DNA of 24,000 bases from an uncultured Pluralibacter sp. (GTDB lineage Bacteria; Pseudomonadota; Gammaproteobacteria; Enterobacterales; Enterobacteriaceae), in the NCBI RefSeq assembly GCF_913775985.1, contig NZ_CAJYMB010000096.1:12609-36608 (forward strand). The letters are read 5' to 3'. Made by a program: the position numbers and the translations under genes. The first letter of the stretch is position 1. Every line of letters starts with the position of its first letter. The notes below the pieces were generated by a model. The model was not told the DNA's origin, searched no databases, and was given only the letters and a program-made list of their open reading frames with translations. Of the stretch, positions 2,727 to 19,152 are shown one piece after another.

Positions 2727-2828
2727 GTGTTCGCCCTGGTCGATGTTAACTCATTTTACGCTTCATGCGAGACAGTTTTCAGACCCGATCTCCGTGGCAA
2801 ACCTGTGGTGGTGCTGTCTAATAACGAT
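2727..2828 (+). pseudogene. umuC: umuC fragment 1 (codons 1-34), interrupted
   Basis: GTG2727 lies 2 nt after the umuD stop. Translation gives [34 protein letters not shown], matching the E. coli UmuC N-terminus [34 protein letters not shown]. Homology ends abruptly after GAT 2826-2828. Confidence 0.9.
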
Positions 2829-2853
2829 CTGAGTGGTGAGAAGTGTTAGTTAG
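2828..2853 (+). repeat. Element A left terminal inverted repeat
   Basis: TCTGAGTGGTGAGAAGTGTTAGTTAG matches the reverse complement of 6964-6989 (TCTGAATGGCACTAACAGTTAGTAAT) at 17/26 positions. Identity is strongest in the terminal 9 nt and in the GTTAGT motif. Confidence 0.65.
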
Positions 2854-3065
2854 TTTCGAGCGTTCAATTCTTCAGTTTGAAGAAATAAATGGTCAGCTAT
2901 GAGCGAGGAGCGGACATTTACTATTCATACCTGTTTAGCGCCACACTCTTTTGAGTATTCCGATTGTCCGTACATCAGTGAGTACTCTTCCGGCGTGTTT
3001 GAGAGGCGCATTCCAGATCCGAATAGCGCCTCGCTCACCGTAAAAAACTCTTTATACTCTTTTTC

Positions 3066-5462
3066 CTAAGGTGACCTTGGTGGTTCGCCAATGCTTTTTA
3101 ACAAGGAGTTGTATTGATGAGGATCTGACGCATAAATTTTATCCAATACGTAGTTTGCCACCTTGGAAATTTCTGGAATCTCCACAGGTTTGAATCCGCG
3201 ATCAGGGATTGATTCGAGATGTGAAAACTCGTTGTTAAGTCTATTCACAAGAGCTATCGCTGTCGGATCCTCTTCGCCAAAGAATTTCTTGATCCGTTCA
3301 AAGGCATCGTTCTTGTCATCATGGTGCGGGAACTTAAAGAACAGAAATGCCTCAAGGAACTTACGGAGGTTGTTACCGAATCCATAGTATGGTTCATGAG
3401 ATTCATTCGCTCCACCTTGATTACGGCACTTGTAAATCTGATGAAACAGGTAGTTGAATTCAGTGATGTAGTCTCGCAGATATGAAGGCATCAGGAAAAT
3501 CTGACTTGCCCCTCCATTTCTCTCAACAATGAAATGTTGGTATCCACCGTGATTCCTCTCATTAGGAAGTGATATTTTCTTTAGATACTTCAAGAAATCT
3601 AGGTTGTGAGTGGATATAAAAAGCTGCTTGTAGCGATAGCTGTTTGTTCGATCTGCATTCTTGATGGGTTTCGCAATCAGGCTTTCAATCAAGCTGAACA
3701 TGAAGAAAATGTGATTTCCGTCCAGGCTGGAAATCGGGTCATCTATATAAATGATCAGATCCTTACCTTTGCTTTCTGGCTCTTCCAACTTGGCCATGAA
3801 GTAGCAGAAAGCAATCAGGCTGCATTCGCCTTCGCTCAAGTTGTAGGCAGATTTACCATCTCTGCTGACTTCAAACTTAACCGAAGTATTCTCAACATTG
3901 TCTTTGGCTTCAAGCTTGATGCCGTCATGACCAAAGAAGTGGCTGAGCAACTCATTCACTCGCTCCGCGCCCTTGCGTTCATCCTTCTGCTGACCCTGTA
4001 GACGGGTCACTTCAGTTTCTTGTTCAAGAATTTCGGCTTCAGCTTCTGTAAATGCAGTGTTGGCTGTGTCAGCATCTATCTTGAGACTGGCAATACGCGC
4101 TAATTCAATATCGTAGGTGATGTCTGAGATAAAAGACGCCACATCGGATAGCCGTAGAGATTCTCGCGCAGTGCTTTTATCGTTCTCCAGCGAAATTGTC
4201 CGGCCATTATTTTTGGCGATAAGATCATTGATGTCGCCAACGCATTGCTGAATTGCAGTCGGATCATGAATATTGACAGGCATGGGAACCTGCTGAAAAA
4301 TGGCGTTCTTTCTCTTATCCAACGCCGCCTGTAGAGCTTTGAGGTCCTGGATGTAGCCTTTCAGATGTTCAGCAAGTGCTATATTGCTGGTTTCAAATAA
4401 TATTTTTTCTTCTGCGTAGAATTTATCGCCAGTCAAAGTCAAGAAGTTAGGAATAGCTTGGATTTCAGTGGCGATAGAAGTCAGACATGAATCGATACTT
4501 GACTCCAGAGCCGAGGATTCCTTACTGAAGTGAGAGTCTAATACCTGCCAGATGTCATGAGGAAGATTCTGACGACAGAATGCGCAAGTGTCCCTCTTAT
4601 CTTTATGTAGCGGTATACCTTCCTTCACCCACATCTGGAGAGCCGTCTCATTCAACAACTCCTGAATTGGCAGAGTTGGCTTAATCAATCTTGAAAGGAG
4701 TTCTTCAGCTACCTTGCTTATTGATTCGATGTTTAGGTTTATCGATACTGTATAGGTAATATCAGGTAGGGCCTCTTGCTTCAAGAGATTGACCTTGGCT
4801 GCTTGTTCTTCGGTTGTCAGAGCTGTGAAGCTAGGTTTTTTGACTGAGCCAATGTCTTTCTTGATGCTTTCTATATTGTAGACAGCAGGACCGTAGATGC
4901 GATTCTGTTTAATCTTATTGTTGGCATGAGAACGAAGTTTGCCCTCTAGAGCATCAGACGCATTTTTATGATTGTCTTTCGTCCGATCTCGCTCTTTCTT
5001 TTTAGCTTCAAGCTCATGTCGGAGGCCCGCCTTCGATTCAACACTGCCTAGTCTAGTTTGAATTGCGGTAATAGCATCTTCGATTTCTTTGTTCTTTTCA
5101 CCAACGATAGCAAACGTCTTGATCTCGCCGTCAGTCTGATTGACCAAGAAGCTTAGATTATCGCTCACAAAATCTCGGTTGTAGACCCGAACATCGTAGC
5201 CATGGCCGGCAAGGCCTACCTGTGTCACATCACCTTTGTCACCACGAATAGTGAAATTTGGGTCCACGTAGTTGTGTGGAATGCGCCCCGTTTCCAAAGC
5301 GCGGAAAATTCGCGAGAGTGTAGTTTTACCAGAGTAATTCCGTCCGTAGAGGATGTTGAGCCTCTTGAAATTCTGGACGTTGTTGCCTGCATCCTTAAGG
5401 CTATTTTTCCAACTGAGGTCCGTAAAACTACCGAAACTACCGATGTCAACCTGACTAAACAT
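3066..5462 (-). CDS. rloC: RloC/PrrC-like ABC-type ATPase with C-terminal anticodon-nuclease-like domain (AAA_13 family defence protein)
   Basis: Walker A is GRNYSGKTT, the signature-like motif is LSEGE, Walker B/D-loop is LIIYIDDPISSLD, and the H-loop is FISTHN. The ATPase head is split by about 400 aa of coiled-coil-like sequence carrying a CxxC (DTCAFCRQNL), like a Rad50/RloC zinc hook. The C-terminus has R-x3-E (NLRKFLEAF) followed by a His (NEFSHLE), like the PrrC/RloC nuclease triad. ATG5462 has GGGGAG 5 nt upstream, so I prefer it to the GTG5468 start in the ORF track. Confidence 0.7.
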   Translation of the reverse strand: MFSQVDIGSFGSFTDLSWKNSLKDAGNNVQNFKRLNILYGRNYSGKTTLSRIFRALETGRIPHNYVDPNFTIRGDKGDVTQVGLAGHGYDVRVYNRDFVSDNLSFLVNQTDGEIKTFAIVGEKNKEIEDAITAIQTRLGSVESKAGLRHELEAKKKERDRTKDNHKNASDALEGKLRSHANNKIKQNRIYGPAVYNIESIKKDIGSVKKPSFTALTTEEQAAKVNLLKQEALPDITYTVSINLNIESISKVAEELLSRLIKPTLPIQELLNETALQMWVKEGIPLHKDKRDTCAFCRQNLPHDIWQVLDSHFSKESSALESSIDSCLTSIATEIQAIPNFLTLTGDKFYAEEKILFETSNIALAEHLKGYIQDLKALQAALDKRKNAIFQQVPMPVNIHDPTAIQQCVGDINDLIAKNNGRTISLENDKSTARESLRLSDVASFISDITYDIELARIASLKIDADTANTAFTEAEAEILEQETEVTRLQGQQKDERKGAERVNELLSHFFGHDGIKLEAKDNVENTSVKFEVSRDGKSAYNLSEGECSLIAFCYFMAKLEEPESKGKDLIIYIDDPISSLDGNHIFFMFSLIESLIAKPIKNADRTNSYRYKQLFISTHNLDFLKYLKKISLPNERNHGGYQHFIVERNGGASQIFLMPSYLRDYITEFNYLFHQIYKCRNQGGANESHEPYYGFGNNLRKFLEAFLFFKFPHHDDKNDAFERIKKFFGEEDPTAIALVNRLNNEFSHLESIPDRGFKPVEIPEISKVANYVLDKIYASDPHQYNSLLKSIGEPPRSP

Positions 5463-5838
5463 GAACACTCCCCTAGCGCTGGCTATAGGTTGCCAATTTG
5501 CAATTGAAACAGATTGTTAATCTAGTCTACTCTGAGTTTAAGGAATGTTTGAATAGGTTATTGATACATTTGATGAATAATTTTATGAACTGAAATTCAA
5601 CACCCATCTAAATGCCCCTCAAAAAGTTCATAGGTTGAGGTTGGGTAATGAAGCTGGGACCTGCTCCCACCAGGTTGAAGAACATAGAACGTTAGCTATG
5701 TCCGCTCTTGGTCCAAAGGGGAATGGCATGGAGCTGAAGTCCGCTATGAGCGAACAGCAGACGTTGACTGATGACTACTCAGTGAATTCATCGTTATTGA
5801 GCATACCCTCCCGGCAACGAACTCAATCTCAATCGTTC

Positions 5839-6348
5839 TCAGACAGCTAGCGCTAGTTGTTGATGACGCTCTATAAATTTCGCTTTGAGGGCGCTATAGC
5901 GATGAGCATCGCTCCTGCTGACTAATACAGCTGCGTGTTTTATCTCAGCATACTCTTCTGCAATGTCTTTATTTCTTCGAAGATAATCACGGAAAGCAAG
6001 ATGTCTCAATACCTGCATATCTCCGACTGCAAACGCATGGACTTGATGACTACGCTGATCACCACCTTTAATGAAATATCTGCGCCCCGCAATCCCGTTC
6101 TCACCGCGAGCAACATACCCGGCGTGGGCCATTGCTGAATGGTACTTATCCAGTTCATTGATGTCGGAAACTTCAAGTAGCATATCAATTACGGGCTTTG
6201 CTGAGAGACCATGAACTGACGTGCTTCCAATATGATGGACATGCTTAGCCATTCCACCGAGCAATGTTTTTATCAGTAAACTTTCAGCTTCAAACATCTC
6301 AGGCCATCTATCATCGTATGGCACAATAATAATCTTACGCATAAACAC
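5839..6348 (-). CDS. GrpB-family (UPF0157) nucleotidyltransferase-fold protein
   Basis: Recognisable by IVPYDDRWPEMFEAE, HIGSTSVHGLSAKPVIDMLLEV (NTase G-S...D motif), RHLAFRDYLR and AEEYAxxK. The start is either GTG6348 or ATG6342. Confidence 0.7.
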   Translation of the reverse strand: MFMRKIIIVPYDDRWPEMFEAESLLIKTLLGGMAKHVHHIGSTSVHGLSAKPVIDMLLEVSDINELDKYHSAMAHAGYVARGENGIAGRRYFIKGGDQRSHQVHAFAVGDMQVLRHLAFRDYLRRNKDIAEEYAEIKHAAVLVSRSDAHRYSALKAKFIERHQQLALAV

Positions 6349-6373
6349 ATTCTCTCTGTCCTAAGTGTGCAAC

Positions 6374-6742
6374 TCAACCCTGAACCCCGGCATTGCCTGC
6401 AGCCGGCGTTGCTTGGTGAAAAAACAGAGTCCACTGGCCCTCATCCGAACAAATCCAGCAAGAGGAACGTAATGCATGATGGCTGCCATCAGCGTAAAAC
6501 GTCCGATAGTGAAGCAGAGCGTAACCGCAGCCCATCTCCGTAAGACGGAAATCGCTGCTGAGAATATAAGGTGCAGCCTTTTCACTTAGCAGCGACGCAA
6601 TGGTCTCTGACCGGTCGACCGTCACACCTGACCGGGTGATTTCACGGAATTCAGGATGAAGAATCAGTTCCAGCCACTCCGGATCATTGCGCCTGTCGCC
6701 GTGAAGGCTGCACTCAAGCAGTCTGAGCTTCTCCAGAAGCAT
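6374..6742 (-). CDS. NTF2-like / DUF4440-type small protein
   Basis: About 122 aa from ATG6742 (the ORF track extends to 6787). The sequence LLEKLRLLECSLH...PEWLELILHPEFREITRSGVTVDRSETI...WTLFFHQATP is typical of SnoaL/DUF4440-fold proteins. It ends 25 nt upstream of the grpB-like gene on the same strand. Confidence 0.55.
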   Translation of the reverse strand: MLLEKLRLLECSLHGDRRNDPEWLELILHPEFREITRSGVTVDRSETIASLLSEKAAPYILSSDFRLTEMGCGYALLHYRTFYADGSHHALRSSCWICSDEGQWTLFFHQATPAAGNAGVQG

Positions 6743-6963
6743 TATGCTTATCCTAAAGTGATTAAGCCGGACGTTCAAATTTACCATAACAGTTCATGCG
6801 CTACTTCCGCTTCTGGCACACTACGGACGGTGACTGATCATTTCCTTTTGAAGATGCTTCTCATCGGATGCGCTCTAAAAGTTGCTAACTGATGTAGCCC
6901 TCCGGGTCTTAACACACAGAAAAAGTTAGTAATTCAATACTCATGAAAATCATGTCGTTACAT

Positions 6964-6989
6964 ATTACTAACTGTTAGTGCCATTCAGA
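6964..6989 (-). repeat. Element A right terminal inverted repeat
   Basis: ATTACTAACTGTTAGTGCCATTCAGA is the partner of 2828-2853. GTTAGT motifs also occur at 6924-6929 and, inverted, at 6967-6972. Confidence 0.65.
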
Positions 6990-6998
6990 TACAATGAT

Positions 6999-7126
6999 GG
7001 CTGCATAATAGCCCGCTCCTCAGTAGCAAAATCACTTGGGTTAAAAATGGGCGATCCCTGGTTTAAGGTTGGTCGTGAGGCTGAGAGAAAGGGAGTTGTA
7101 GCATTTTCAAGTAATTACAGCTTATA
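6999..7126 (+). pseudogene. umuC: umuC fragment 2 (codons 35-76 plus 2 nt of codon 77)
   Basis: Translation gives GCIIARSSVAKSLGLKMGDPWFKVGREAERKGVVAFSSNYSL, matching E. coli GCVIARNAEAKALGVKMGDPWFKQKDLFRRCGVVCFSSNYEL. It is flanked on both sides by unrelated sequence. Confidence 0.9.
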
Positions 7127-7131
7127 GTAAG

Positions 7132-7146
7132 TTAAGTGGAATGCAA
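7132..7146 (+). repeat. Element B left terminal inverted repeat
   Basis: TTAAGTGGAATGCAA matches the reverse complement of 18095-18109 (TTATGTGGAATGCAA) at 14/15 positions. Confidence 0.8.
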
Positions 7147-7197
7147 CATTGAGTGAGTAAACTTTGAGCAGCGATATTGCTGTCAGAGGAGAACACG

Positions 7198-8184
7198 ATG
7201 CTGATCCCACCGAATGAACAAAGCCTATTGCTGGCAGAGCGCTGGCTGAAACTGTTATCCGATCTCGGGCGGGCGCAGGGCACACTCACCGCCTACCGTA
7301 GCGCCCTTCATCATTACTTTTCGTTCTGCAGCGAGAACGGAATTGAACCTGAAAAAGCCCGGTTTGAAGACCTCGCCGCCTACATCCGCCCTCAGCTGCC
7401 TGGCATGCCTTACCCTGCGGCCAGTGCCACGCTCCAGCTGCGCCTGTCTGCTATCCGTCTCTGGTATGACTTTCTTGTTTATCAGGATATATGCAGTCTC
7501 AATCCGCTACCCCGCGCGGGTTTACCGGGTGCCATTTATACCGGGCGGGGGCTTGTCCCGCGTATCACCCGCTTACCTGTAATACCTGACAATGAACAAT
7601 GGCTGAGATTTCTTAAACATGTTTCAGCTGCTTCCCTGCGGGACCGGCTGATGCTCGCACTGGCCTATTTTGGTGCACTCCGCCGTGCAGAGGTGACAGC
7701 CCTGACGCTTGAGGATATCGACCCTGCTCATCGCCTGATCCGTATCCGCCCGGAAACAACGAAAAGCCGGCGTGAAAGGGTTGTGTGCTATGGTCCGGAC
7801 ATTACGCCGGTACTGGCAAACCTTTTCCGGCAGCTGAAGCGGGCTGGCCGGACACAGGGGGCGTTGTTCCGTTCATTTTCTGATCGTAATTACGGCACTC
7901 CTCTTTCTGTGTGGAGCTGGAGTAAAACCGTGCGCAGATGGGCTCTGGATACGGGGCTTCCACAGATTACAACCCACACCTTTCGCCATCTTCGCCTGAC
8001 CCATCTGGCTCGGGCCGGCTGGAAGCTGCATGAGCTGGCGACTTATGCTGGACACAGAGATCCGCGCACCACACAGATTTATATCCATCTGTCAGGGTCC
8101 GATCTGTCTGGCCGGATAACCGCAGCCGTAGCTGAAACCGACAGGAAAATCGCTGGCCTTATTTTTCAGGCGGGGGCTTACTGA
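7198..8184 (+). CDS. Tyrosine recombinase (XerC/D-like, small subunit of the pair)
   Basis: Catalytic motifs are present: ALRRAEV (Arg I), HTFRHLRLTH (H-x-x-R) and GHRDPRTTQIYIH (His...Tyr). ATG7198 has AGGAG 6 nt upstream, so I prefer it to TTG7177. Confidence 0.85.
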   Translation: MLIPPNEQSLLLAERWLKLLSDLGRAQGTLTAYRSALHHYFSFCSENGIEPEKARFEDLAAYIRPQLPGMPYPAASATLQLRLSAIRLWYDFLVYQDICSLNPLPRAGLPGAIYTGRGLVPRITRLPVIPDNEQWLRFLKHVSAASLRDRLMLALAYFGALRRAEVTALTLEDIDPAHRLIRIRPETTKSRRERVVCYGPDITPVLANLFRQLKRAGRTQGALFRSFSDRNYGTPLSVWSWSKTVRRWALDTGLPQITTHTFRHLRLTHLARAGWKLHELATYAGHRDPRTTQIYIHLSGSDLSGRITAAVAETDRKIAGLIFQAGAY

Positions 8185-10301
8185 TGAGTGGAAAAAAAAA
8201 CACAGTCACTTATATACCTTTCAAACGCACAGATTATCAGCTGAGCGATGCGCTGAGTCCTGAGGAAAAAGACGCGATACGTACAGGCTACCGGCGGTCT
8301 GCTGCGCTCGATCGGCCAGATTCCCTGCCATATTTGCTGCTGCCTCTGCAGGACATTGCCTCACGAAGCAGTATCAGTGTCAGACTTGCCAGAATTACCC
8401 TCCTTGCCGTTCTTGCAGAAACGCACCGGTCGGGTCAGCCCTGCTGGCAGTGGACGCAGGAAAGATGGTTAACGCTCTGTGAGCAACACTGTTCCGGCAG
8501 GCCCCTGCTTGCTGCTTTTGCCTTTCATCTCGGTCCGTTTTCTTCTCCGCTCAGCCTGCCAGTGCATGGCGCACCGTCGTTGTACGCCAGTGCTATATAT
8601 GGCCGGAGTATTGTCAGTCATGAAATTAACCGGCTGACAGACGTTCTGATCTCAATGGGATATGCCGGGCAGAATCAGAAGCACAATATGTCCGGTATGC
8701 TGGGTGTACTGATGCTGATGAACAACGACCCGCGTCTTGAAACTTTTACGACAGACCTCCTGTGGCGGGGGCAGAACTGCCACGACCGGGGAATCGCAAG
8801 AGCTACGGGGAAAATATCCTGTGCGCTTGCTGCTATGGGAATTATAGAGAGCCCCCTGAGAATGCGTAACTATCAGGAATGGCATGAAAAGCCAACACAA
8901 GGTATCGCACCTGACTGGGCGCGGTGGTGCCGGATGTGGCGGGAAACGTCGGTACTCCGCCCCCGCTCCAGAGAAACTCAGTACAGTTTTATTCTCCGCT
9001 GTGGCCTGTGGCTTGCCCGGGAAAAGCCGGAAATATGCGAGCCCTCTGACTGGACAATGGAAACCTGCGCCAGCTTTATTGCAATGGTCGGCAGACTGAA
9101 AGTAGACGAGCTGTCACTGGATACAAAGAAAGGGGGCAGACAATCAAAACGCTCAGGAGAACCCCTGATGCCGCATTCCCGCAGCCGGTTTGTTTATGCC
9201 ATTCGCCGTTTTATGCTTGATTATGAAAGCTGGGGATGGGGGCGATTAAAGTTCAGTCCGGCCCGCCATCTGTCCACGCCTGATACACCGCTGTTTCGTC
9301 AGGGCGTGAGCCCCCGCGTTATTGATGATCCGGTCTGGCTCAGACTGGTCTGGGCGAGTCTGAACCTGCGTCAGGAAGATTTGCTGAGCGAAATTCATTA
9401 TCCCCTGTCTATGCTTCAGGCTATGGCGGTTATCTGGACGCATGCCGGGCTGCGACAGAACGAGCTGTTGCGCCTGACAATGAACTGCGTTACCCCACAG
9501 GTGGATGACATTCTGCAGGAAAACAGCAGCCCTGTCCCGGCCGGTACTCTGTGCTATCTCAGCGTACCAGCCGGCAAAACGTCTAAAGCTTTTGTTAAGC
9601 CAGTCTCGTCTGTTGTGAAAAAATATGTCGATATCTGGCTCAGTGAGCGTCCTCAGGAGCAGGCAGCATTTACGGATGAACGCACCGGTGAAAAAGTTCG
9701 TTATCTGTTTCAGAACCGGGGTAAACCGGTGGGAAGAAACATAATAAATCTCACTGTCATTCCGCTTCTCTGCGCCAGAGCGGGTATGTCTGTGGAAGAT
9801 TCACGCGGTCCCATTACCAGCCACCGCGGCCGTGCTTCTGCCGTTACAGCACTGGCCAGTGTTGCCGGGGGGATGTCTTTACATGAGCTGATGCAGTGGT
9901 CCGGCCATTCATCCCCACAGTCAACCCTGCATTATATTCGTATACGTCCGACTCAGCTGGCCGCTTCGTTCGTCAAAGCCGACAGGGTCTCTCATATGAT
10001 AAGCGTGCTGATTGACCACGATCCGGAAGCCGCCAGTCTGACCGGACCCGCGACGTACTATGATCTGGGTGACTCATACTGCACGAACCCTTTCTGGAGC
10101 AGCTGTCAGCACCGGATGGCCTGCATCGGCTGCGATTTTAACCTGCTTAAAGACAGCGCGCGCGGGCTGATAATGGAGAGTAAAGCATCCATCCGGCGTT
10201 ACCTTGAAGAGGTTCCGCTCACTCCCGATGAGAGATCCATACTGGAGCAGGATGCTGAAAAGGTTGAGCGGGTTCTTACAAGACTGGATCCACAATCCTG
10301 A
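8184..10301 (+). CDS. Large tyrosine recombinase (705 aa, Tn554 TnpB-like size class)
   Basis: The start overlaps the upstream stop (TGATG). Motifs are GLRQNELLRL, SHRGRASAVT and GHSSPQSTLHYIR. There is a long N-terminal extension and a Cys-rich C-terminal tail. Confidence 0.8.
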   Translation: MSGKKNTVTYIPFKRTDYQLSDALSPEEKDAIRTGYRRSAALDRPDSLPYLLLPLQDIASRSSISVRLARITLLAVLAETHRSGQPCWQWTQERWLTLCEQHCSGRPLLAAFAFHLGPFSSPLSLPVHGAPSLYASAIYGRSIVSHEINRLTDVLISMGYAGQNQKHNMSGMLGVLMLMNNDPRLETFTTDLLWRGQNCHDRGIARATGKISCALAAMGIIESPLRMRNYQEWHEKPTQGIAPDWARWCRMWRETSVLRPRSRETQYSFILRCGLWLAREKPEICEPSDWTMETCASFIAMVGRLKVDELSLDTKKGGRQSKRSGEPLMPHSRSRFVYAIRRFMLDYESWGWGRLKFSPARHLSTPDTPLFRQGVSPRVIDDPVWLRLVWASLNLRQEDLLSEIHYPLSMLQAMAVIWTHAGLRQNELLRLTMNCVTPQVDDILQENSSPVPAGTLCYLSVPAGKTSKAFVKPVSSVVKKYVDIWLSERPQEQAAFTDERTGEKVRYLFQNRGKPVGRNIINLTVIPLLCARAGMSVEDSRGPITSHRGRASAVTALASVAGGMSLHELMQWSGHSSPQSTLHYIRIRPTQLAASFVKADRVSHMISVLIDHDPEAASLTGPATYYDLGDSYCTNPFWSSCQHRMACIGCDFNLLKDSARGLIMESKASIRRYLEEVPLTPDERSILEQDAEKVERVLTRLDPQS

Positions 10302-10414
10302 CGGATCAGATGCTTACAATGTCCGGCCTGAGGGTGTCAGCGCAGAGTCAGTACAGACGACCGAACGTCGTATCTGATATAAATCTGATTATAGCGGGCG
10401 TGATGCCGTAACTG

Positions 10415-10828: not shown

Positions 10829-10933
10829 AACTCTGTCACGACAGTGCCCCGGATTTACGAGAAGCATTACAGGCGTAAACCCTGTCGGGTCAGGCCCGCA
10901 GAGAGCGCTTCTGAACAATATACTGAACTGTCT

Positions 10934-10965: not shown

Positions 10966-10995
10966 TCGCCTGGATTAAAGGCCGTACGGTCCGGG

Positions 10996-11376: not shown

Positions 11377-12086
11377 TCCTTTTTTTTAATATTCAGAACA
11401 TCACGGGACACGACCTGGGCGGCCGCATCCATCTGATATACGACCGGCACGCCGGTCGGGATGTGCAGCTGTGCCACGCTGTCGTAAGGCATGCCGTCCA
11501 GGAAGGCGGTCAGGGCGCGCAGCGTGTTGCCGTGCGCCACAACCAGAACGGAACTTCCGCAGCGTAACTGCGGTACCACAGCATGCTGCCAGTACGGCAT
11601 GACGCGGCGCAGCGTCATTTCCAGGCTTTCCGTTGCAGGCAGGTCGGCCAGCGCAACGCGGCGGTAGCGCAGATCCCGACGCAGCTGCGCCGGAGCCTCC
11701 GCGTCCGCGGGCGGAATGCCGCTGAAGCTTTTGCGCCAGAGCCGGACAGTCTCTTCCCCCATTATCCGGGCAGCGTCGTCCTTGTTCAGCCCCTGCAGCG
11801 CCCCGTAGTGGCGCTCATTCAGTCGCCAGCTCTTTTCCACGGGCGTCCAGCTGCGGTCAAGACGGTCCAGCACCCGCCAGACCGTGTGAACGCAGCGTGT
11901 CATCACCGAGGTGAAGACACGGTCGGGCATCAGGCCCGCTGCCCGCAACGCGTCACCGGCCCGGTCGGCCTCCTGCCGCCCCCTGACCGTCAGCGGCACG
12001 TCTGTCCATCCGGTAAAACGGTTTTCCCGGTTCCACTGGCTTTCGCCGTGACGCAAAAGGATCAGCGTTGCAGAGGCCACAGGCAT
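11373..12086 (-). CDS. gpmA: 2,3-bisphosphoglycerate-dependent phosphoglycerate mutase family protein
   Basis: Carries the LILLRHGESQWNRENRFTGWTDVPLT histidine-phosphatase signature, plus ERHYGALQG and VVAHGNTLRAL. I placed the start at ATG12086 because the longer ORF-track form overlaps eno. Confidence 0.85.
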   Translation of the reverse strand: MPVASATLILLRHGESQWNRENRFTGWTDVPLTVRGRQEADRAGDALRAAGLMPDRVFTSVMTRCVHTVWRVLDRLDRSWTPVEKSWRLNERHYGALQGLNKDDAARIMGEETVRLWRKSFSGIPPADAEAPAQLRRDLRYRRVALADLPATESLEMTLRRVMPYWQHAVVPQLRCGSSVLVVAHGNTLRALTAFLDGMPYDSVAQLHIPTGVPVVYQMDAAAQVVSRDVLNIKKKE

Positions 12087-12123
12087 TCCTTCTGTGCCGG
12101 ACGGGGACCGTCCGGCGGATGTG

Positions 12124-13413
12124 CTACGTGCGGCGCACAAACGCATGAAGCCCCGCGTAGTGCGCATCGTCACCCAGCGCCTGCTCAATGCGCATCAGCT
12201 GGTTGTACTTTTCCACGCGTTCGCCGCGGCACGGCGCGCCGGTTTTCAGGTGTCCCGCGCGCAGGGCCACCGTCAGGTCGGCAAGGAACGTGTCCGTGGT
12301 TTCCCCGCTGCGGTGGGACATGAACGCGCCCCAGCCGTGCCGCTGGCAGAGCGCCACGGCGTCCAGCGTTTCGCTGAGCGAGCCTATCTGATTGAGTTTA
12401 ATCAGTGCGGCGCTGGCGAGGTTTTCGTCAATGCCGCGCTGGATATACTTCACGTTGGTGACAAACAGGTCGTCACCAACCAGTTCGGCCCTGCCCGCAA
12501 GCTGCCGGTGCAAATGCTTCCAGCCCGCCCAGTCGTCCTCGGCCAGGCCGTCTTCCAGCAGGATGACGGGAAACTGGTCCATCAGCTCGCCGTAGTATGC
12601 CGTCATTTCCGCCGCGCTCAGCGCGCTGCCCTCGGTGCGCAGATGATATTTGCCGTCTGCGAAAAACTCACTTGAGGCAGGGTCCATGCAGATGCTGATG
12701 TCTTCTCCGGGCCGGTATCCGGCTTTCTCAATGGCCTGTACGATAAACGCCAGCGGGTCGCGGTTTGACGACACGGCGGGCGCAAAACCGCCTTCGTCGC
12801 CCACTGCCGCCGACAGGTTGTTGTCCAGCAGGATCTGGCGCAGCGCCTGGTAGACCTCGCTGCCCTGACGTACGGCCTCGCGCAGCGTGGGTGCGCCGTG
12901 CGGGGCTATCATGAACTCCTGAAAGTCCGCGCCCTGACCGCGGGCGTGCACGCCGCCGTTGATAATGTTCATGCACGGCACGGGCAGCAGGTTCGCCTGC
13001 AGGCCACCCAGGTAGCGCCACAGCGGCTCGTGGGAGGCCTGTGCCGCCAGCCGGGCCACCGCCAGCGACACGCCCAGAATGGCATTGGCACCCAGGCGAC
13101 TCTTGTTCTCCGTGCCGTCCAGCGCCAGCATGATGTTGTCCAGCTGACGCTGTTCGCGCACGTCGCTGCCGCGCACGGCCTGGCAGATTTCCGTATTAAC
13201 CGCCCTGACGGCATCCAGCACGCCTTTACCGCCAAAACGGTGTGCGTCACCGTCGCGGCGCTCTGCGGCCTCGCGCGAGCCGGTACTGGCCCCGGAAGGC
13301 ACCGAGGCGCGCGCCATCATCCCGTCCGTAGTCCGGGCTTCAACTTCAACGGTGGGGTTGCCGCGCGAGTCAAGAATTTCACGGGCGGTTACGTTATCCA
13401 GTGTAAAGCGCAT
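12124..13413 (-). CDS. eno: Enolase (extra, island-borne copy)
   Basis: AREILDSRGNPTVEVE, SVPSGASTGSREA, DVAASEF-like, LLLKLNQIGSL-like and SHRSGETTDTFLADL motifs are colinear with bacterial enolase. Confidence 0.92.
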   Translation of the reverse strand: MRFTLDNVTAREILDSRGNPTVEVEARTTDGMMARASVPSGASTGSREAAERRDGDAHRFGGKGVLDAVRAVNTEICQAVRGSDVREQRQLDNIMLALDGTENKSRLGANAILGVSLAVARLAAQASHEPLWRYLGGLQANLLPVPCMNIINGGVHARGQGADFQEFMIAPHGAPTLREAVRQGSEVYQALRQILLDNNLSAAVGDEGGFAPAVSSNRDPLAFIVQAIEKAGYRPGEDISICMDPASSEFFADGKYHLRTEGSALSAAEMTAYYGELMDQFPVILLEDGLAEDDWAGWKHLHRQLAGRAELVGDDLFVTNVKYIQRGIDENLASAALIKLNQIGSLSETLDAVALCQRHGWGAFMSHRSGETTDTFLADLTVALRAGHLKTGAPCRGERVEKYNQLMRIEQALGDDAHYAGLHAFVRRT

Positions 13414-13428
13414 GGTGTTTCTCCCGGT

Positions 13429-13854
13429 TCAGTCAGTCAGGTGAGTGATAAGCACATCCACCGTAAGGTGGTTGATGTAGTCCGCCGAGCGGGAGGTGAG
13501 CATTCCCATAAAGCGGTTTCGGTGCCCGGCAAGCACGAGGTCCACGCCCAGCTCCGCGATGCACTTCTCCACGTCCTCAACGCGGCGCATGGTCACCAGC
13601 TCCCGCGTGTCTACCGTCTCAGGCACGGAGGCCGCCAGCTCACTCATAAACGCTTTGCCTTTCAGCACCTCCTCCGACACGACGTCGTCCATCAGGCTGT
13701 CAGACACGTAGTTCATCTCCCGGTAGTCGTCGCTGATGTGCGCCAGGGTGATTTTCATGCCGAGCGGCTGCGCCAGCGCGACCGCCCGTTTCAGCAGAAG
13801 AGTGCCGTCGTTTTTATCGTTCACAAGTATCAGTGCGTGGGTGTAGCAGGTCAT
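13429..13854 (-). CDS. Universal stress protein (UspA family)
   Basis: 141 aa. ILVNDKNDGTLLLKRAVALA...VDLVLAGHRN...SRSADYINHLTVDVLI is typical of the USP fold. The ATG overlaps the ppaC stop. Confidence 0.8.
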   Translation of the reverse strand: MTCYTHALILVNDKNDGTLLLKRAVALAQPLGMKITLAHISDDYREMNYVSDSLMDDVVSEEVLKGKAFMSELAASVPETVDTRELVTMRRVEDVEKCIAELGVDLVLAGHRNRFMGMLTSRSADYINHLTVDVLITHLTD

Positions 13855-14759
13855 AATGAACCTCCGTTCTGGTTAAGGCGGGACTCAAGCCACGGCAGAA
13901 GCTGCTTTTTGCGGCTGAGCATGCCCGGTACGGAGCAGGAGGCGACGTTAACGCTCTCCCGCCCGGCGAAGTAAAGCGTTGAGAACCCGGTACGAATGTC
14001 GGTCAGCATCAGCACCGCCAGGCCAGCTCCCGACTGGTCTGCCAGATACGCCAGTGCTGCGAGCAGGTCGTTCATCACGGGGGCAACCTGTGACGGTGAG
14101 CTGACCTCAATCTGGGCTATGCGCACGTCGGTGCCGGCAATGACGAAGGCCTTGAGGTCCCTGTCCAGCAGCTGCTGTGCGCTGAGGCCGCTGACGTCTG
14201 TTTTTGCGGTGAGGAGGTCACGGGCGAAGGCTCTGCGGTTTACGCCAGACAGTGCGCCCAGTTCGGTCGCCGAACGGATATCGTCTTCGGTGGTGGTCGG
14301 CGAGCGAAGATTCACGGTATCACTCAGGAGTGCGCCCAGCAGAAGCACGGCGAGCGTCGGGGGCAGCATGCGGCGCGCTTCTGCGTCCATCAGCAGCCAG
14401 AGCAGCGTGGCGCTGCTGCCAACCGGGCGAATATGTACCTCCGGCGGCAGTTGCGTTATCAGCCCGCCCAGCCGGTGGTGGTCAGTGATGCCCACGACGT
14501 TGCTCCGGAGCAGGTCGTCAGGCCCCTGTGCCGGTTCGGTGAAATCGACCAGCCAGACCCGTTCATCCTTTAGCGGAAAAGCGAGCAGCGGCGGCAGCGT
14601 GAGGCCGGCGGCGTCAAAGATAAAGCGGGTTTCCCGGTTAGCCTCGCCGAGACGCCATGCGCGGGCATCCATTCCGCGCCCGGTCAGCCAGTGTGCGGTG
14701 ACGACGGTCGTGCAGATGGCGTCGCTGTCAGGATTAATGTGGCCAAAAACGTGTATCAC
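13851..14759 (-). CDS. ppaC: Family II (DHH/DHHA2, Mn-dependent) inorganic pyrophosphatase
   Basis: HVFGHINPDSDAI, ITDHHR, PVGSSATL, LLSDTVNLRSPTTT and SRKKQLLPWL are colinear with PpaC. The start is GTG14759, preceded by GGGGAGAGA. Confidence 0.88.
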   Translation of the reverse strand: MIHVFGHINPDSDAICTTVVTAHWLTGRGMDARAWRLGEANRETRFIFDAAGLTLPPLLAFPLKDERVWLVDFTEPAQGPDDLLRSNVVGITDHHRLGGLITQLPPEVHIRPVGSSATLLWLLMDAEARRMLPPTLAVLLLGALLSDTVNLRSPTTTEDDIRSATELGALSGVNRRAFARDLLTAKTDVSGLSAQQLLDRDLKAFVIAGTDVRIAQIEVSSPSQVAPVMNDLLAALAYLADQSGAGLAVLMLTDIRTGFSTLYFAGRESVNVASCSVPGMLSRKKQLLPWLESRLNQNGGSL

Positions 14760-14841
14760 AGGTCTCTCCCCATAGAGGGAAGTACGCAGGCCGGGAGGAA
14801 AGTAAGGACGGCCTGACGCACCTCCTGAAAATCAAGAGTCA

Positions 14842-14901
14842 CATCAGGCGTCATCAGCTCCTGAACGGAGCGGTTGGGAAGGGTGGAACGCCATCACCCT
14901 G
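14842..14901 (-). promoter_or_regulatory. Fluoride riboswitch (crcB RNA motif) in the ppaC operon leader
   Basis: The minus strand reads AGGGUGAUGGCGUUCCACCCUUCCCAACCGCUCCGUUCAGGAGCUGAUGACGCCUGAUG. P1 is GGGUG/CACCC, P3 is GCUCC/GGAGC, and the pseudoknot is GGCGU/ACGCC. The conserved GAUGG, AACCGC and CUGAUGA elements sit as in the Thermotoga aptamer GGGCGAUGAGGCCCGCCCAAACUGCCCUGAAAAGGGCUGAUGGCCUC. Confidence 0.9.
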
Positions 14902-14908
14902 TACTGTG

Positions 14909-14937
14909 AGTATAGAGCCGGTTGCAAAACCTGTCAG
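14909..14937 (-). promoter_or_regulatory. Sigma70 promoter of the fluoride operon
   Basis: On the minus strand: CTGACA, 17-nt spacer, TATACT. This predicts a transcription start near 14902, immediately 5' of the riboswitch. Confidence 0.7.
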
Positions 14938-14956
14938 TATTATTCCGGCGGCGCTC

Positions 14957-15556
14957 TCAGCCCGCCAGCGCAGTGCGTGCCTCGCGGAGCACCTGGCGGA
15001 TGTTTTCCGGCACTGCCGGGCTTGTGCAAAGCGACAGCGGGCTGGGGTGAGGCATAGTCAGCACCGTGACGCCGGGGCGAAGGCAGCTGACCGTCCCGCG
15101 GGCCTGCGCCGCTACGGCACCGGCCAGCACCACCACGCGCAGCGCGGGCAGATACGCCAGCACGCCCTCAAGCCAGGCGCAGCCGCTGCGGATGTCCGCC
15201 GCTGAGGGCCGTTTCTGCGGCCCGTCACTGACCCAGGGCACCGTATTCCACAGCACGCTGTCCCGGCGCGCAATACCGGCCTCCGCCAGAAACCGCCCCA
15301 GATTCTGCTGGGCCGGCCCCGGGTTATCTCGCGAAACGAACCGGGGTGACGGGCTGCTGCGCGCCGGCGACTGCAGCAGGACAAGCAGTCCGGCCCCGGT
15401 CCCGCCGTCGGCCGGATCAAACCACGGCAGTTCCACGCCGGCCTGACGCTGCCCGCTGACCCAGCGATTCAGCGCGGCTACGTGCGGCGCGGTAATCGCC
15501 GCGAGGCGCTCCTCGCGCAGAAAGGGGTCCAGCAGCGACGTGCAGGTTTCACTCAC
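14957..15556 (-). CDS. Uracil-DNA-glycosylase-superfamily-like protein
   Basis: About 199 aa from GTG15556, which overlaps the upstream TGA (GTGA). It has an alternating beta-strand/helix pattern (LLVLLQSP, VLWNTVPW, VVVLAGAVA) and a C-terminal MPHPSPLS motif like the HPSP motif of family 4/5 UDGs. The ORF-track N-terminal extension overlaps the transporter gene and is unlikely to be real. Confidence 0.45.
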   Translation of the reverse strand: MSETCTSLLDPFLREERLAAITAPHVAALNRWVSGQRQAGVELPWFDPADGGTGAGLLVLLQSPARSSPSPRFVSRDNPGPAQQNLGRFLAEAGIARRDSVLWNTVPWVSDGPQKRPSAADIRSGCAWLEGVLAYLPALRVVVLAGAVAAQARGTVSCLRPGVTVLTMPHPSPLSLCTSPAVPENIRQVLREARTALAG

Positions 15557-16713
15557 GACTTCCGGTCCAGGCCTGCCAGGCAGGGGGAAACAAAGAGTTT
15601 CCCGCTCCATGCCCCGCGCACCGTCTTCACAGCGACAAGCAGCCACATGGCGGCCAGCATGACGACAAGAAGCGCGCCGAAGCCTTTAAAGAACGCCAGG
15701 TCAACGAGGGTGGACAGCTTCAGCGTGGCGACGGTGTACACGCCCAGCGGGAAGGTAAAGCCCCACCATCCCAGGTTGAACGGAATGCCTTCACGAAAGT
15801 ATCGCACGGTTATCAGCGTGGCCAGCAGCATCCACCACAGGCCGCAGCCCCAGAAGAGAATGCCGGCAACGAACCCCACGCCCTGCGCGATGTGAGCGAT
15901 TTCCGGCATGCCCGCCGCGGCAAACACCCCGGGCGCATCGCCGCCGATGACCAGCATACCGAGCGAACCGGTGCCAATCGGCCCCAGGGCCAGCCAGCTT
16001 GAGGCTGCCATGCTTTCGTGCGGCAGCTTGTGCAGGGCCATACGCAGCAGCAGGATGGCAAGGATGCTCAGCGCCACCGGTACGGAGTAAGCCCACAGCA
16101 CGTAGCTGGTAATAATGATGCCGAGCTGCGCGTGGGTGTCGGCAATGTGCGGCGCCAGCAGGCCGCCGCTGACCGCTGCGACCTCGGCAGCCACAACCGG
16201 CAGTAACCAGACGGCCGTCATCTGGTCAATGCTGTGCTGCTGCCGGGTAAACATCATGTAAGGAATACACACGCCGCACAGCAGCGACATCGCCACGTCC
16301 AGCCACCACAGGGCGTGCGCCACCGGAATGACGTCTGCGCCCCACCGGGGAAGACCGAACGCCAGCAGGCCGTTGATGATGGTCGCCATGCCCATCGGGA
16401 TGGTGCCGAAGAACATGGACACGGTTGAATGGCCGAAGATGCGCTTTGCCTCACCGAAGTACATGACCCAGCGGGCCAGATACATCACGGCAAAAACGCT
16501 GAACAGCAGGATGTTAAACATCCACAGCCCTTCCGCGACGAGGCGCAATCCCGGAACCGGCCAGGGGAACTGCGCCAGAGACAGCGACAGGATACCGGTT
16601 CCCATGGTGGCGGCGAACCAGTTTGGCGTGAACTGACGTATGGCCTCTTTCGGGCTGCTCAGCGCGCTCAGCGGGCGTGCTCCGTTATGCAGGGTAAATA
16701 TTTTATCGTTCAT
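15553..16713 (-). CDS. TDT-family (TehA/Mae1/SLAC1-like) anion transporter
   Basis: 386 aa with about 10 TM helices. The N-terminal FTPNWFAATMGTGILS motif is characteristic of C4-dicarboxylate/tellurite-resistance (PF03595-type) transporters. Confidence 0.7.
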   Translation of the reverse strand: MNDKIFTLHNGARPLSALSSPKEAIRQFTPNWFAATMGTGILSLSLAQFPWPVPGLRLVAEGLWMFNILLFSVFAVMYLARWVMYFGEAKRIFGHSTVSMFFGTIPMGMATIINGLLAFGLPRWGADVIPVAHALWWLDVAMSLLCGVCIPYMMFTRQQHSIDQMTAVWLLPVVAAEVAAVSGGLLAPHIADTHAQLGIIITSYVLWAYSVPVALSILAILLLRMALHKLPHESMAASSWLALGPIGTGSLGMLVIGGDAPGVFAAAGMPEIAHIAQGVGFVAGILFWGCGLWWMLLATLITVRYFREGIPFNLGWWGFTFPLGVYTVATLKLSTLVDLAFFKGFGALLVVMLAAMWLLVAVKTVRGAWSGKLFVSPCLAGLDRKS

Positions 16714-16811
16714 GCCGGGATCTCCTGTGTAAACAGAAACAGTATAGGCATGCAGACGTAAATCTTTAAAACAGGTTATTCAGCTAAAATAAATCTGTAA
16801 AAGTGGTTTAT

Positions 16812-16858
16812 CCTCCCTCACCCTGCGAAAGACTGTTACTGCACCGGAGTGAGGGAGG
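16812..16858 (-). terminator. Stem-loop after the beta-propeller gene
   Basis: CCTCCCTCAC (16812-16821) pairs with GTGAGGGAGG (16849-16858), a 10-bp GC-rich stem with a long 27-nt loop. It lies 8 nt downstream of the stop. The U-tract is weak. Confidence 0.4.
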
Positions 16859-16865
16859 GACTGAA

Positions 16866-17867
16866 TCAGGCCTTCGGCGGGCTTTTAATCGTGGCCGTGA
16901 CGCGGTTCTGTTTCAGGTCAACCACCGAAATACTGAGGTCTTTATTCAGCACCCACGCGCGGGCACTGTCTTTACTGAAAACGATGGCCTGACGGGGCGC
17001 ATCCAGTCCGGTAACAGTGGCGACCACCTTACCGGCGGCGGTATCAATAACGGAGAGGCTGTTGTCACCCAGGTTGCCGCTGTAAACATAGCGGTTATCC
17101 GGTGTCAGGGCGGCACCGTAAGGGTCCTGCCCCACGGGAATGGTTGCCGTAATGGCGCGCTTCTGCGTGTCAACCACTGCGATGGTGTTGCTCCCGCTGT
17201 TAGCCGCGTAAAGCGTGCGGCCGTCGGCGCTGACAGAAATGGCGCGCAGCTTGCTGAAGCCGGTTATCTCGCCGCGAATCTCACCCGTTACGGCGTCAAC
17301 GAGGGTGATTTTATCGCCCTTAAAGTTGGTGACGTAGACGGTTTTGCCGTCCGGGCTGATTTTGATGCCCTGACGGGGCTGAGCAAAACCCGTCACAACC
17401 GAAACGGGCCGGTTGTGGGTCAGGTCATACACCGAGAGTGTGCTGGCGGCTTCGTTATTCACATACAGACGCTGACCGTCACGGCTGATGGCTGTACCGA
17501 ATGCCCCGGCCCCCAGCGGCAGCGTGGTCTCCACGTCAAGCGTCCCGGTGCTGATTTTTCTGACCACGCCGAGGCTGCTGTCTGAAAGATATACAGCCTT
17601 CCCGTCGGGGGAGAAAAGCGCATTGCGGGGCGTGACGTATCCCTTCAGCACCTTTCTGACTTTGCCGTTAACCAGGTCGTAAACCACCACGTCAGGGAGC
17701 TCACTGTAGGAGGCCACCGCCGTTTTTTCATCGGGACTGACAGCAAGAGAATTGTTGTGGATATCGCCGTCAAACGTCCAGCGCGCCTCTGCGGCACCGG
17801 CGAGGGTGCTGATGAGAAGAAGCGCCACCGCGGTCAGTCCCGGGATCCTGTATTTTTTTATCATCAT
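16866..17867 (-). CDS. Secreted YVTN/YncE-like seven-bladed beta-propeller protein
   Basis: Signal peptide MMIKKYRIPGLTAVALLLISTLAGAAEA, followed by repeated SPDGKxxYVxN / xxxxLSVID blades typical of YncE/lactonase-type propellers. Confidence 0.75.
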   Translation of the reverse strand: MMIKKYRIPGLTAVALLLISTLAGAAEARWTFDGDIHNNSLAVSPDEKTAVASYSELPDVVVYDLVNGKVRKVLKGYVTPRNALFSPDGKAVYLSDSSLGVVRKISTGTLDVETTLPLGAGAFGTAISRDGQRLYVNNEAASTLSVYDLTHNRPVSVVTGFAQPRQGIKISPDGKTVYVTNFKGDKITLVDAVTGEIRGEITGFSKLRAISVSADGRTLYAANSGSNTIAVVDTQKRAITATIPVGQDPYGAALTPDNRYVYSGNLGDNSLSVIDTAAGKVVATVTGLDAPRQAIVFSKDSARAWVLNKDLSISVVDLKQNRVTATIKSPPKA

Positions 17868-18094
17868 TTTTCCTGCATAGGGGGTGGTAAGGGATAAGAC
17901 TCATTGCCCGCTTAAGGGCTTCAGAAGAAGCGTGGCAGATAACCCCCTCTCAGGGAAATCGATTTTCCGGCTATGTCTTACCAGTTCACTTCTTTATGCT
18001 CTGAGCGGAGGTAAACTGCAGCAATTTAAGGCTGAATAAGTGGGGCTCTGGATTTCAGTCCATGAGGAATAGTTGCTCATTTTTTTTGTTTAAA

Positions 18095-18109
18095 TTGCAT
18101 TCCACATAA
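18095..18109 (-). repeat. Element B right terminal inverted repeat
   Basis: TTGCATTCCACATAA is the partner of 7132-7146. Confidence 0.8.
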
Positions 18110-18110
18110 A

Positions 18111-19152
18111 TGCTGATATGTCAGACAGAGTGATGACTATTTTGCAGCTTCTAACCCCGCGCGTGGAAATATACAGCATTGATGAGGCATTTTGTGATCT
18201 TCAAGGGGTGAGTAATCTGTTGTCGCTTGAAGAGTTTGGCCATCATATACGTACTCAGATTAAGCGAAGAACACATCTGACTGTGGGAGTGGGAATAGGC
18301 CCTACAAAAACGCTCGCCAAACTGGCTCAGTATGCAAGTAAGCGCTGGCCCGCAACGCGAGGTGTGGTAGATCTCAGTGACAGAGAGCGTCAGCGTAAGT
18401 TAATGGCTTTAGTGCCAGTTGAGGAGATCTGGGGTATCGGACGTAGGCTGGGTAAAAAACTACAATTTATGGGAATTAACAATGCACTTCAGCTGGCAGA
18501 GCTGTCACCTTCATTCATTCGTAAACAGTTCTCAGTAGTTGTTGAGCGCACGGTCAGAGAGCTGAACGGCACTCCTTGCCTCGGTTTAGAAGAATTTACT
18601 GCCCCAAAAGAACAAATCATATGCTCCCGATCTTTTGGAGAAAAACCGTCGGACGAAGTCAGCCTGCATCAGGCCATTTGCGCTCATGCTGAACGTGCAG
18701 CAGAAAAACTCCGTGCAGAGCATCAATTTTGTAAACGGGTAGCAGTTTTCATTAGTACCAGCCCTTTCTCAGAAAATGAGCTGTTTTATAAGAACCAGGC
18801 GGTAACAGAGCTTGCTGTACCCGCTCAGGATTCACGGGATATCATCAACGCGGCTATAAAGGCATTTGATACGATATTTGTCCCAGGGCACCGTTATCAT
18901 CGTGCTGGCGTGATGCTCACTGATTTCCGAAGCGCTGCTGTATCTCAATTGACCCTTTTTGATGACTTTCAGCCCCATCGAAACAGCGAGGAGCTGATGA
19001 CATTAATCGATAGCATTAATCACTCAGGTAAAGGTTCGGTCTGGTTTGCAGGGCAGGGCATTAAAAGTGATGCCACAGGCTGGAAGATGCGAAGAGAAAG
19101 ACTTTCGCCTGCCTTTACAACCAGGCTGGATGACATAATCAAGGTGAAGTAG
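18111..19152 (+). pseudogene. umuC: umuC fragment 3 (last base of codon 77 to stop)
   Basis: Translation gives ADMSDRVMTILQLLTPRVEIYSIDEAFCDLQGV...THLTVGVGIGPTKTLAKLA...IWGIGRR...LSPAFTTRLDDIIKVK, colinear with E. coli UmuC residues 78-422. Confidence 0.92.

Follow-up and report, generated by a model that had tools for sequence, protein, structure and literature searches.

The umuC gene in a stretch of 24,000 nucleotides from an uncultured Pluralibacter sp. (RefSeq assembly GCF_913775985.1, contig NZ_CAJYMB010000096.1, positions 12,609 to 36,608 of the forward strand; below, the window) is split into three fragments by two insertions. This is very probably the umuC gene of an Erwiniaceae conjugative plasmid or integrative and conjugative element (ICE) that has received two independent site-specific insertions from different tyrosine-recombinase families, each in its own site within a conserved motif. 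Insertion 1 would have entered at the GAT site after ...SNND (codon 34) and appears to be a member of the ILE/SE lineage that targets rulB and umuC, of which the SE core intA-tfp-intB-srap would have been lost or was never present. Insertion 2 would have entered the Tyr77 codon of the motif ...SSNYxLY, and carries two recombinase genes, here called RecS and RecL, at its left end, co-oriented with umuDC. The initial annotation had proposed two separate insertions of mobile DNA unrelated to each other, which agrees with what is described here.

The three fragments (2727-2828, 6999-7126 and 18111-19152) add up to 1272 nt, a number divisible by 3. Removal of 4170 bp (2829-6998) and 10984 bp (7127-18110) rebuilds a single open reading frame (ORF) of 423 codons, free of frameshifts and internal stops; the fragment boundaries and both deletion sizes were thus given exactly in the initial annotation. 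The joined product is colinear with E. coli UmuC and matches the NCBIfam model NF002955 (UmuC) over residues 1-423 with 680.5 bits (cutoff 431). An intact allele on the chromosome of Enterobacter bugandensis (L021; L-numbers are the labels of the compared loci) shares 93.2% of its nucleotides and 96% of its amino acids with the joined gene. At both joints, a check specified beforehand, this allele is identical to the in-silico join (...tctaataacgat|ggctgcataat... and ...cagcttata|tgctgatatg...), which confirms the observation at the stated coordinates; the site-2 joint of a rebuilt or empty umuC would read AGCTTATATGCTGAT. The intact alleles were drawn from the genome collection and not from PLSDB, where a blastn search with the joined umuC returned no close intact allele (top match 81% over two thirds of the gene).

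In the window itself umuC is not an uninterrupted, expressible gene. It is broken between codons 34 and 35 and within codon 77, fragment A reads into a stop six foreign codons past the junction, and DNA polymerase V (Pol V) is inactivated by the interruption. The upstream part of the locus is organised as initially described: umuC starts with GTG 2 nt behind the umuD stop (2724), and the LexA box, then called near-consensus, is in fact perfect (TACTGT-N8-ACAGTA) and overlaps the promoter-like sequence. The exact boundary of insertion 1 is ambiguous across a 6-bp repeat AAYGAY (AACGAT at 2823-2828, AATGAT at 6993-6998), and that of insertion 2 by one A (7126 or 18110). The description of both insertions as frame-preserving is correct, yet it means only that a site-specific insertion was precise. 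A reading of the insertions as introns or inteins was rejected on the basis of their antisense cargo, their att-type junctions and the occurrence of the same elements with recombinases.

The insertions had also been taken as recent and/or reversible, and only the first of these properties is supported. Youth is supported by the dN/dS of the joined umuC (0.105 against the intact allele, 0.28 against Erwinia oleae), by the 99.8-100% identity of insertion 2 to four other copies, and by the nearest backbone, in which site 2 is empty. Reversibility is not supported: insertion 1 is without a recombinase of its own, SEs reportedly leave no empty sites behind, and insertion 2 is not known to excise.

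All four possible states of occupancy were found on related backbones: both sites are empty in E. bugandensis, only site 1 is filled in E. oleae, only site 2 in Kluyvera, Dryocola and related genomes, and both in the window. The nearest backbone, contig95 of E. oleae (93-94% nucleotide identity), carries a core-less element with the same footprint in site 1 and nothing in site 2. The probable order of events is an early occupation of site 1, followed recently by that of site 2. The initial annotation considered two occupants of one umuC unusual, but double occupancy is not unusual. Plasmid pX22927_1 of Mixta hanseatica shows umuD, codons 1-34, a core-less SE shell, codons 35-76 and a two-recombinase element, and in the megaplasmid of P. 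aeruginosa AR439 site 1 holds a full SE with mer genes and site 2 a two-recombinase element. Several further Pseudomonas plasmids gave BLAST matches of the same extent, the likeness being one of extent only, and both umuC positions had already been reported in ICEPan (De Maayer 2015, PMC4458695).

The initial statement that umuC/rumB is an insertion hot spot, used in the case of umuC by tmexCD-toprJ elements, was correct. The tmexCD-toprJ SEs share the target gene with the two insertions of the window, although they occupy neither of the two sites: their site is a third one, YSID|E at about codon 101, and their recombinases are unrelated to RecS and RecL by BLASTP. An example is the tmexCD2 element of pHNNC189-2, inserted after ...YSID (CATCGAT). 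The three landing sites (...SNND|, ...LY| and ...YSID|) all lie within the most conserved polymerase motifs. On pHNNC189-2 (L009, 10273-26112) the order is umuD, umuC(1-76), a two-recombinase element with CBASS, and a second umuD with umuC(1-103), the latter broken at YSID by the tmexCD2 element. An umuC 3' part is missing in between, which points to a rearrangement between umuC-borne elements.

The assignment of insertion 1 as a core-less ILE/SE derivative is made because its site, its termini and its footprint fit that lineage. The rulB ILEs (ILE_FH1/FH4/FH5 and pGRT1/pTTS12; PMC4542609), which are counted as SEs (PMC10214605), occupy the same gene and codon in the same orientation, with the GAT of Asp34 directly before GGN TGC, an inner terminus CTGAG(G/T)G, a conserved right terminus of ~85 bp ending in CATTCAGATAC, and a 6-bp footprint beside the right end. 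In the window the left junction reads GAT|CTGAGTGG, the ends (motifs C and C') align with those of the SEs of pTTS12 and pHS17-127 and with the ILE terminus CTGAGGG, and, as in full-length ILE/SEs, the intA-proximal end adjoins umuC fragment A. The junction follows AAYGAT of codons 33-34 in 10 umuC alleles. In the experiments of Rhodes et al. 2014 (PMC4542609), ILE_FH1 (the pGRT1/pTTS12 element) integrated into rulB of pWW0 at GAT in a single orientation, and CTGAGGG lay immediately inside the junction. The elements with the same ends on the Pseudomonas megaplasmids pTTS12 and pHS17-127 start with an integrase, Tfp, a second integrase and Srap, and their Tfp and Srap are entries in the SE survey of Idola et al. 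(PMC10214605).

According to the SE rule, the six bases beside the left end of the donor are copied beside the right end at the new site; empty sites were not regenerated in the reported SE experiments. In line with this rule, the window has AATGAT at attR and AACGAT at attL, and in all nine tabulated copies the attR hexamer is AAYGAY (Asn-Asp) and unlike the local attL hexamer. A tenth copy (L079) also has AATGAT at attR, but here the attL hexamer is identical. A DDE transposon with target duplication was rejected for insertion 1, which encodes no transposase and whose imperfect 6-bp repeat reads AAYGAY in every case. Folded as RNA, the left end of insertion 1 gave no structure beyond that of shuffled sequences (z = -0.2).

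Compared with the rulB ILEs, insertion 1 lacks intA, tfp, intB and srap, is shorter (4.2 kb versus 9-16 kb) and carries other cargo (PDC-S06, GrpB, DUF4440). Only AAA_13, GrpB and DUF4440 were recognised among its ORFs with Pfam, and no recombinase. The ATPase matches PDC-S06 (PDLC04887) over residues 3-796 of 800 (E=0, 1067.7 bits), a system that has the status of candidate defence only. Insertion 1 cannot move alone and can at most be mobilised in trans. No PLSDB record matches it as a whole; its ATPase block shares 92% identity with a region of an Erwinia plasmid outside umuC, and its GrpB-DUF4440 block 98% with Pantoea megaplasmids. In many plasmids both ends are conserved at the same position of umuC, and at least eight core-less site-1 shells without a recombinase but with both termini were found, with differing cargo. 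They include those on pNBBC01-3 of P. agglomerans and pMB3093_2 of E. hormaechei, and others whose cargo is a microcin B17-like cluster (K. pneumoniae pMTY12137), an ars cluster (Mixta hanseatica), one GST gene (Y. ruckeri) or a nitrilase-family gene with LysR (E. oleae).

Insertion 2 has been published before: De Maayer 2015 (PMC4458695) described it as the 'umuDC island' in ICEPan, pEB102, pEI70 and P. vagans C9-1, and Xu 2018 (PMC5971314) as R4' of pPV989-94. The size of ~11 kb, the GC content of ~60%, the two 'XerC/XerD-like' recombinases, the location in umuC and the gene order (gloA, crcB, gpmA, eno, uspA, ppaC, ung, the mae1/TDT gene and the beta-propeller gene) all agree, and no structural difference from either description was found. 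Full-length copies are present in five other Pantoea plasmids, with 99.8-100% identity in four (H1-H4) and 95.4% in the fifth (H5). The ends are conserved across 8 hosts as GTAAGTTAAGTGGAATGCAA... and ...TTGCATTCCACATAAA with at most 1-2 base differences (A, T or C at left position 9, and one right end ATAAT), and the terminal inverted repeats measure 11-15 bp. In all 8 hosts, in which UmuC is 48-70% identical in amino acids, the junction is TA|Y of Tyr77 (...SSNYxLY), and the same junction is found in L009, L010, L014 and L015. The 8 copies, including those that are 89-91% identical overall, contain no host-derived hexamer as a footprint.

RecS aligns to XerD, including the catalytic R, HxxR, H and Y; the catalytic residues of RecL were read from its sequence and from the alignment to RecS. 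Homologues of RecL occur in 607 PLSDB records. Adjacent small and large tyrosine recombinases with catalytic residues recall Tn554 (TnpA, TnpB, TnpC; Staphylococcus and Enterococcus), a likeness of organisation, the only level at which the two were compared. Unlike Tn554, insertion 2 has no TnpC-like third gene and no variable 6-bp footprint, and its host belongs to the Gammaproteobacteria. The gap between RecL and the next gene is 113 bp, and no conserved third ORF follows RecL in L009, L010 and L078. In BLASTP comparisons of RecS and RecL with the SE proteins IntA, Tfp, IntB and Srap and with the integrases of the tmexCD elements, only a generic similarity in the catalytic boxes was observed. 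NCBIfam gave only sub-threshold Xer-type matches for both recombinases, nothing was found for RecL among the PDB sequences, and literature searches for umuC together with Tn554 or GInt returned nothing relevant. Relatives of insertion 2 at the same umuC codon carry CBASS and an ATPase (pHNNC189-2), a restriction-modification system and an ATPase (pHNNC189-4), chlorite dismutase (a P. aeruginosa megaplasmid), or metal and arsenic resistance cargo.

The cargo of insertion 2 was read as energy metabolism or glycometabolism in the published descriptions, which left the termini and the joint undefined (PMC4458695, PMC5971314). The operon is preceded by a fluoride riboswitch (RF01734, upstream of ppaC) and includes crcB (CrcB 177.8 bits, cutoff 125), which makes it a fluoride-riboswitch regulon. 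The same architecture is known from GI3 of Enterobacter cloacae FRM, where RF01734 is followed by ppaC-uspA-eno-gpmA-crcB; the homologous operon there was experimentally found to give high fluoride resistance (Liu 2017, PMC5533749). That description mentions neither umuC nor recombinases.

Several variants of these elements were encountered. The fluoride element of Pantoea soli plasmid unnamed2 (L006, positions 2503 and 15411) carries an additional chemotaxis-receptor gene, and its junction is shifted by a few bases, with a right end ATAAT instead of ATAAA. On a Rahnella aquatilis plasmid (L080, 4979-7614) ppaC-usp-eno lies outside any two-recombinase element, beside chrA and IS110, and is bounded by copies of the 28-bp palindrome described below. 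Some site-2 elements contain a complete umuD-umuC as cargo near the right end, as in Kluyvera georgiana (L025, 8126-9969, with L067), in Dryocola, Superficieibacter and Chimaeribacter, and in L014 (16419-19300). This looks as if the disrupted gene were replaced, for which SE-6283 with its bcp homologue provides a parallel. In P. agglomerans HJS002 the cargo umuC is itself interrupted by a core-less SE shell that holds only IS1.

We propose that RecS and RecL would catalyse the insertion by way of a circular form whose joint reads TTGCATTCCACATAA-AGTAAG-TTAAGTGGAATGCAA; joined in this way, the ends of insertion 2 form a classical core-type site. The recombinase operon would normally be read from the LexA-controlled umuDC promoter, from which insertion 1 would now separate it by 4.2 kb. 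The hypothesis of SOS control of the recombinases was also raised by De Maayer 2015 (PMC4458695) and Rhodes 2014 (PMC4542609).

A number of observations weigh against this interpretation of the two insertions. The genes that characterise the left end of SEs (intA, tfp, intB and srap) are absent from insertion 1, and its terminal inverted repeat is weak (CTGAGTGG/CCATTCAG, 8 bp, 7/8, offset by 4 bp). Insertion 2 shows neither a target duplication nor a variable footprint across the copies compared, and its crossover chemistry cannot be read from the sequence. The P. soli copy is inserted in the opposite orientation to umuC. Finally, the mobility of both insertions in the window is deduced from sequence.

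Table 1. Coordinates of the umuDC locus, the two insertions and their components in the window
Feature	Position	Strand	Profile match
umuDC promoter-like site TTGTCA-18-TATACT with LexA box TACTGTTTTTATATACAGTA (2170-2189)	2144-2189	+	
umuD, intact, 171 aa	2209-2724	+	NF007621 143 bits, cutoff 110
umuC fragment A, codons 1-34, GTG start, ends ...SNND; last 6 nt AACGAT are the SE 'fingerprint'	2727-2828	+	
Insertion 1, core-less ILE/SE-type, 4170 bp including the 6-bp footprint	2829-6998	+	
SE/ILE left terminus CTGAGTGGTGAGAAGTGTTAGTTAG..., homologous to the CTGAGGG terminus of rulB ILEs and the pTTS12 SE	2829-2895	+	
Palindrome copy 1, GCTATGAGCGAGGAGCGGACATT	2896-2918	+	
AAA_13 ABC-type ATPase, 800 aa, PADLOC candidate defence PDC-S06	3066-5468	-	Pfam AAA_13 E=4.5e-153
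Palindrome copy 2, between the ATPase block and the GrpB-DUF4440 block	5743-5765	+	
GrpB family protein	5839-6348	-	Pfam GrpB E=2.9e-48
DUF4440 / NTF2-like protein	6374-6787	-	Pfam DUF4440
Degenerate inverted palindrome copy, TTCCGCTTCTGGCACACTACGGACGG	~6805-6832	-	
SE/ILE right terminus, ~85 bp conserved, GTTAGT repeats, ...ACTAACTGTTAGTGCCATTCAGATAC	6908-6992	+	
6-bp footprint AATGAT, Asn-Asp codon pair presumed copied from donor umuC	6993-6998	+	
umuC fragment B, codons 35-76 and TA of Tyr77	6999-7126	+	
Insertion 2, two-tyrosine-recombinase integrative element, 10984 bp; ICEPan 'umuDC island', R4' of pPV989-94	7127-18110	+	
Left terminus GTAAGTTAA-GTGGAATGCAA; 11-bp inverted repeat at 7136-7146	7127-7146	+	
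RecS, small tyrosine recombinase, ATG at 7198, ORF opens at 7177	7198-8184	+	Pfam Phage_integrase and SAM-like N domain
RecL, large tyrosine recombinase, 705 aa, start overlaps RecS stop	8184-10301	+	Phage_integrase at residues 402-588
VOC/glyoxalase family protein	10415-10828	+	
Fluoride operon: ppaC 13851-14759, usp 13429-13854, eno 12124-13413, gpmA 11373-12080/12188, crcB 10996-11376	10996-14759	-	
Fluoride riboswitch upstream of ppaC	14838-14907	-	Rfam RF01734 50.2 bits, gathering score 34
Uracil-DNA-glycosylase-family gene 14957-15646, TDT-family transporter 15553-16713, YncE-like beta-propeller 16866-17867	14957-17867	-	
Right terminus TTGCATTCCAC-ATAAA	18095-18110	+	
umuC fragment C, third base of Tyr77 to stop codon	18111-19152	+	

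The boundaries of the cargo modules in insertion 1 are marked by a palindrome of 23-28 bp (GTCCGCT-N10-AGCGGAC, in two loop variants), for which zero matches are expected by chance. At copy 1 the homology to other shells ends and that to the ATPase block of Erwinia QL-Z3 begins, and in general the homology between shells breaks at or inside the palindrome. Inverted pairs, the form in which it usually occurs, bracket cargo in other shells and modules outside any SE (L079 7334/8287, L015 2549/8967, L037 5376/8384, L003 6002/11534, L002 16059/17632, L082 3012/4072). The GrpB-DUF4440 module is bounded by the palindrome in a K. pneumoniae plasmid and by half-motifs in a Pantoea megaplasmid. Such palindrome-bounded cargo modules were not seen at the left end of the pTTS12 element. 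A 32-nt consensus of the palindrome is present in 2273 PLSDB records, mostly of Klebsiella and always unannotated, and in 1049 of 5426 E. coli genomes. The median of one copy per E. coli genome rejects a REP-like high-copy repeat, and on inspection by eye it resembles neither dif/Xer sites nor attC. A literature search with the string found no paper that holds the sequence. On the chromosome of E. coli O158:H23 (L081, 5001-5028) the palindrome is part of a lambdoid (Qin-like) prophage, where it is flanked by an accessory gene and the remnant of a GIY-YIG gene.

The history of insertion 1 can be read in two ways that differ in whether the shell still moves. It could be an immobile scar, left by a full ILE/SE of which the core was deleted in place, the cargo reshuffled by ordinary recombination and the ends retained as relics. 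The missing recombinase fits such a scar, as do the mosaic cargo, whose pieces match unrelated plasmid regions of Erwinia and Pantoea at 92-98% identity, the 'broken' SE forms reported for tmexCD elements, and the backbone, footprint AATGAT and first ~87 bp that the window has in common with E. oleae. The scar does not account well for the eight or more core-less copies that differ in cargo and keep both termini, nor are three independent in-place deletions all ending at the same palindrome likely. Moreover, umuC alleles with no more than 56-66% identity (P. agglomerans HJS002, Mixta, Y. ruckeri) carry shell ends that are 88-94% identical, whereas between the window and E. oleae, where the flanking alleles are 97% identical, the ends agree by only 78-87%. 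This mismatch requires movement or precise exchange at the element boundaries, and suggests that shells or their boundaries were exchanged site-specifically. On balance we consider the scar possible but rather unlikely. An equally tentative proposal is that the site-1 elements of enterobacterial plasmids and ICEs could be trans-mobilised cassettes, in which a recombinase-less shell, made up of a left end of ~70 bp and a right end of ~90-120 bp, would pass from one umuC allele to another and the palindrome would serve as crossover for cargo modules. It would fit the incongruent phylogenies of ends and flanks, the eight or more cargo sets within shared termini, the homology breaks at the palindrome, and the GrpB-DUF4440 module that the palindrome also bounds outside any SE.

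Two further explanations question the independence of the insertions. Both elements share one umuC here, in Mixta and in Pseudomonas megaplasmids, as expected if they formed one functional system in which the recombinases of insertion 2 mobilise insertion 1. The termini of the two elements, CTGAGTGG.../...CATTCAGATAC and GTAAGTTAAGTGGAATGCAA/TTGCATTCCACATAAA, are unrelated, however, site 2 is empty beside the site-1 shells of K. pneumoniae, P. agglomerans pNBBC01-3, E. hormaechei, E. oleae and Y. ruckeri, and the site-1 element of Pseudomonas has an SE core of its own. Such mobilisation was rejected on account of the unrelated termini and of the shells with an empty site 2, and we regard a joint system as very improbable. 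That the arrangement is an assembly chimera, or the product of homologous recombination between plasmids instead of two insertions, finds nothing specific in its favour other than nested or rearranged versions elsewhere (L009, L014). All four junctions recur, identical to the base, in independent complete assemblies, and removal of both inserts restores an ORF that matches the intact allele at both joints, which leaves this explanation with hardly any probability.

Downstream of umuC, the backbone carries a STAXI RNA (20664-20822, 100.7 bits) and an EFASI RNA (21238-21387, 88.4 bits) in tandem. A 307-aa ORF with an integrase domain (21475-22398) lies just downstream of this pair and is followed by a serine recombinase gene on the minus strand (22464-23081).

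Most of the biology of the window has been described before: the hot spot is recognised, insertion 2 is a published element, and insertion 1 adds a new core-less member to a family already in the literature. The only part that may be new is the organisation of palindrome-bounded modules on a possibly trans-mobilised shell. The umuC/rulB genes of conjugative elements offer at least three separate landing sites for distinct tyrosine-recombinase elements, which can be filled in combination. Cargo is thereby stacked behind an SOS-regulated promoter at the loss of Pol V: fluoride resistance and a defence candidate in the window, and elsewhere CBASS, restriction-modification systems, and metal or tigecycline resistance. 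For annotation, this means that what is labelled 'umuC pseudogene plus hypothetical DNA' can be split up into named elements, each with exactly defined ends, and that the published energy-metabolism reading of the cargo of the 11-kb island is corrected. If the core-less shells are mobilisable, they would provide clinical plasmids of Klebsiella and Enterobacter with a simple vehicle for cassettes.

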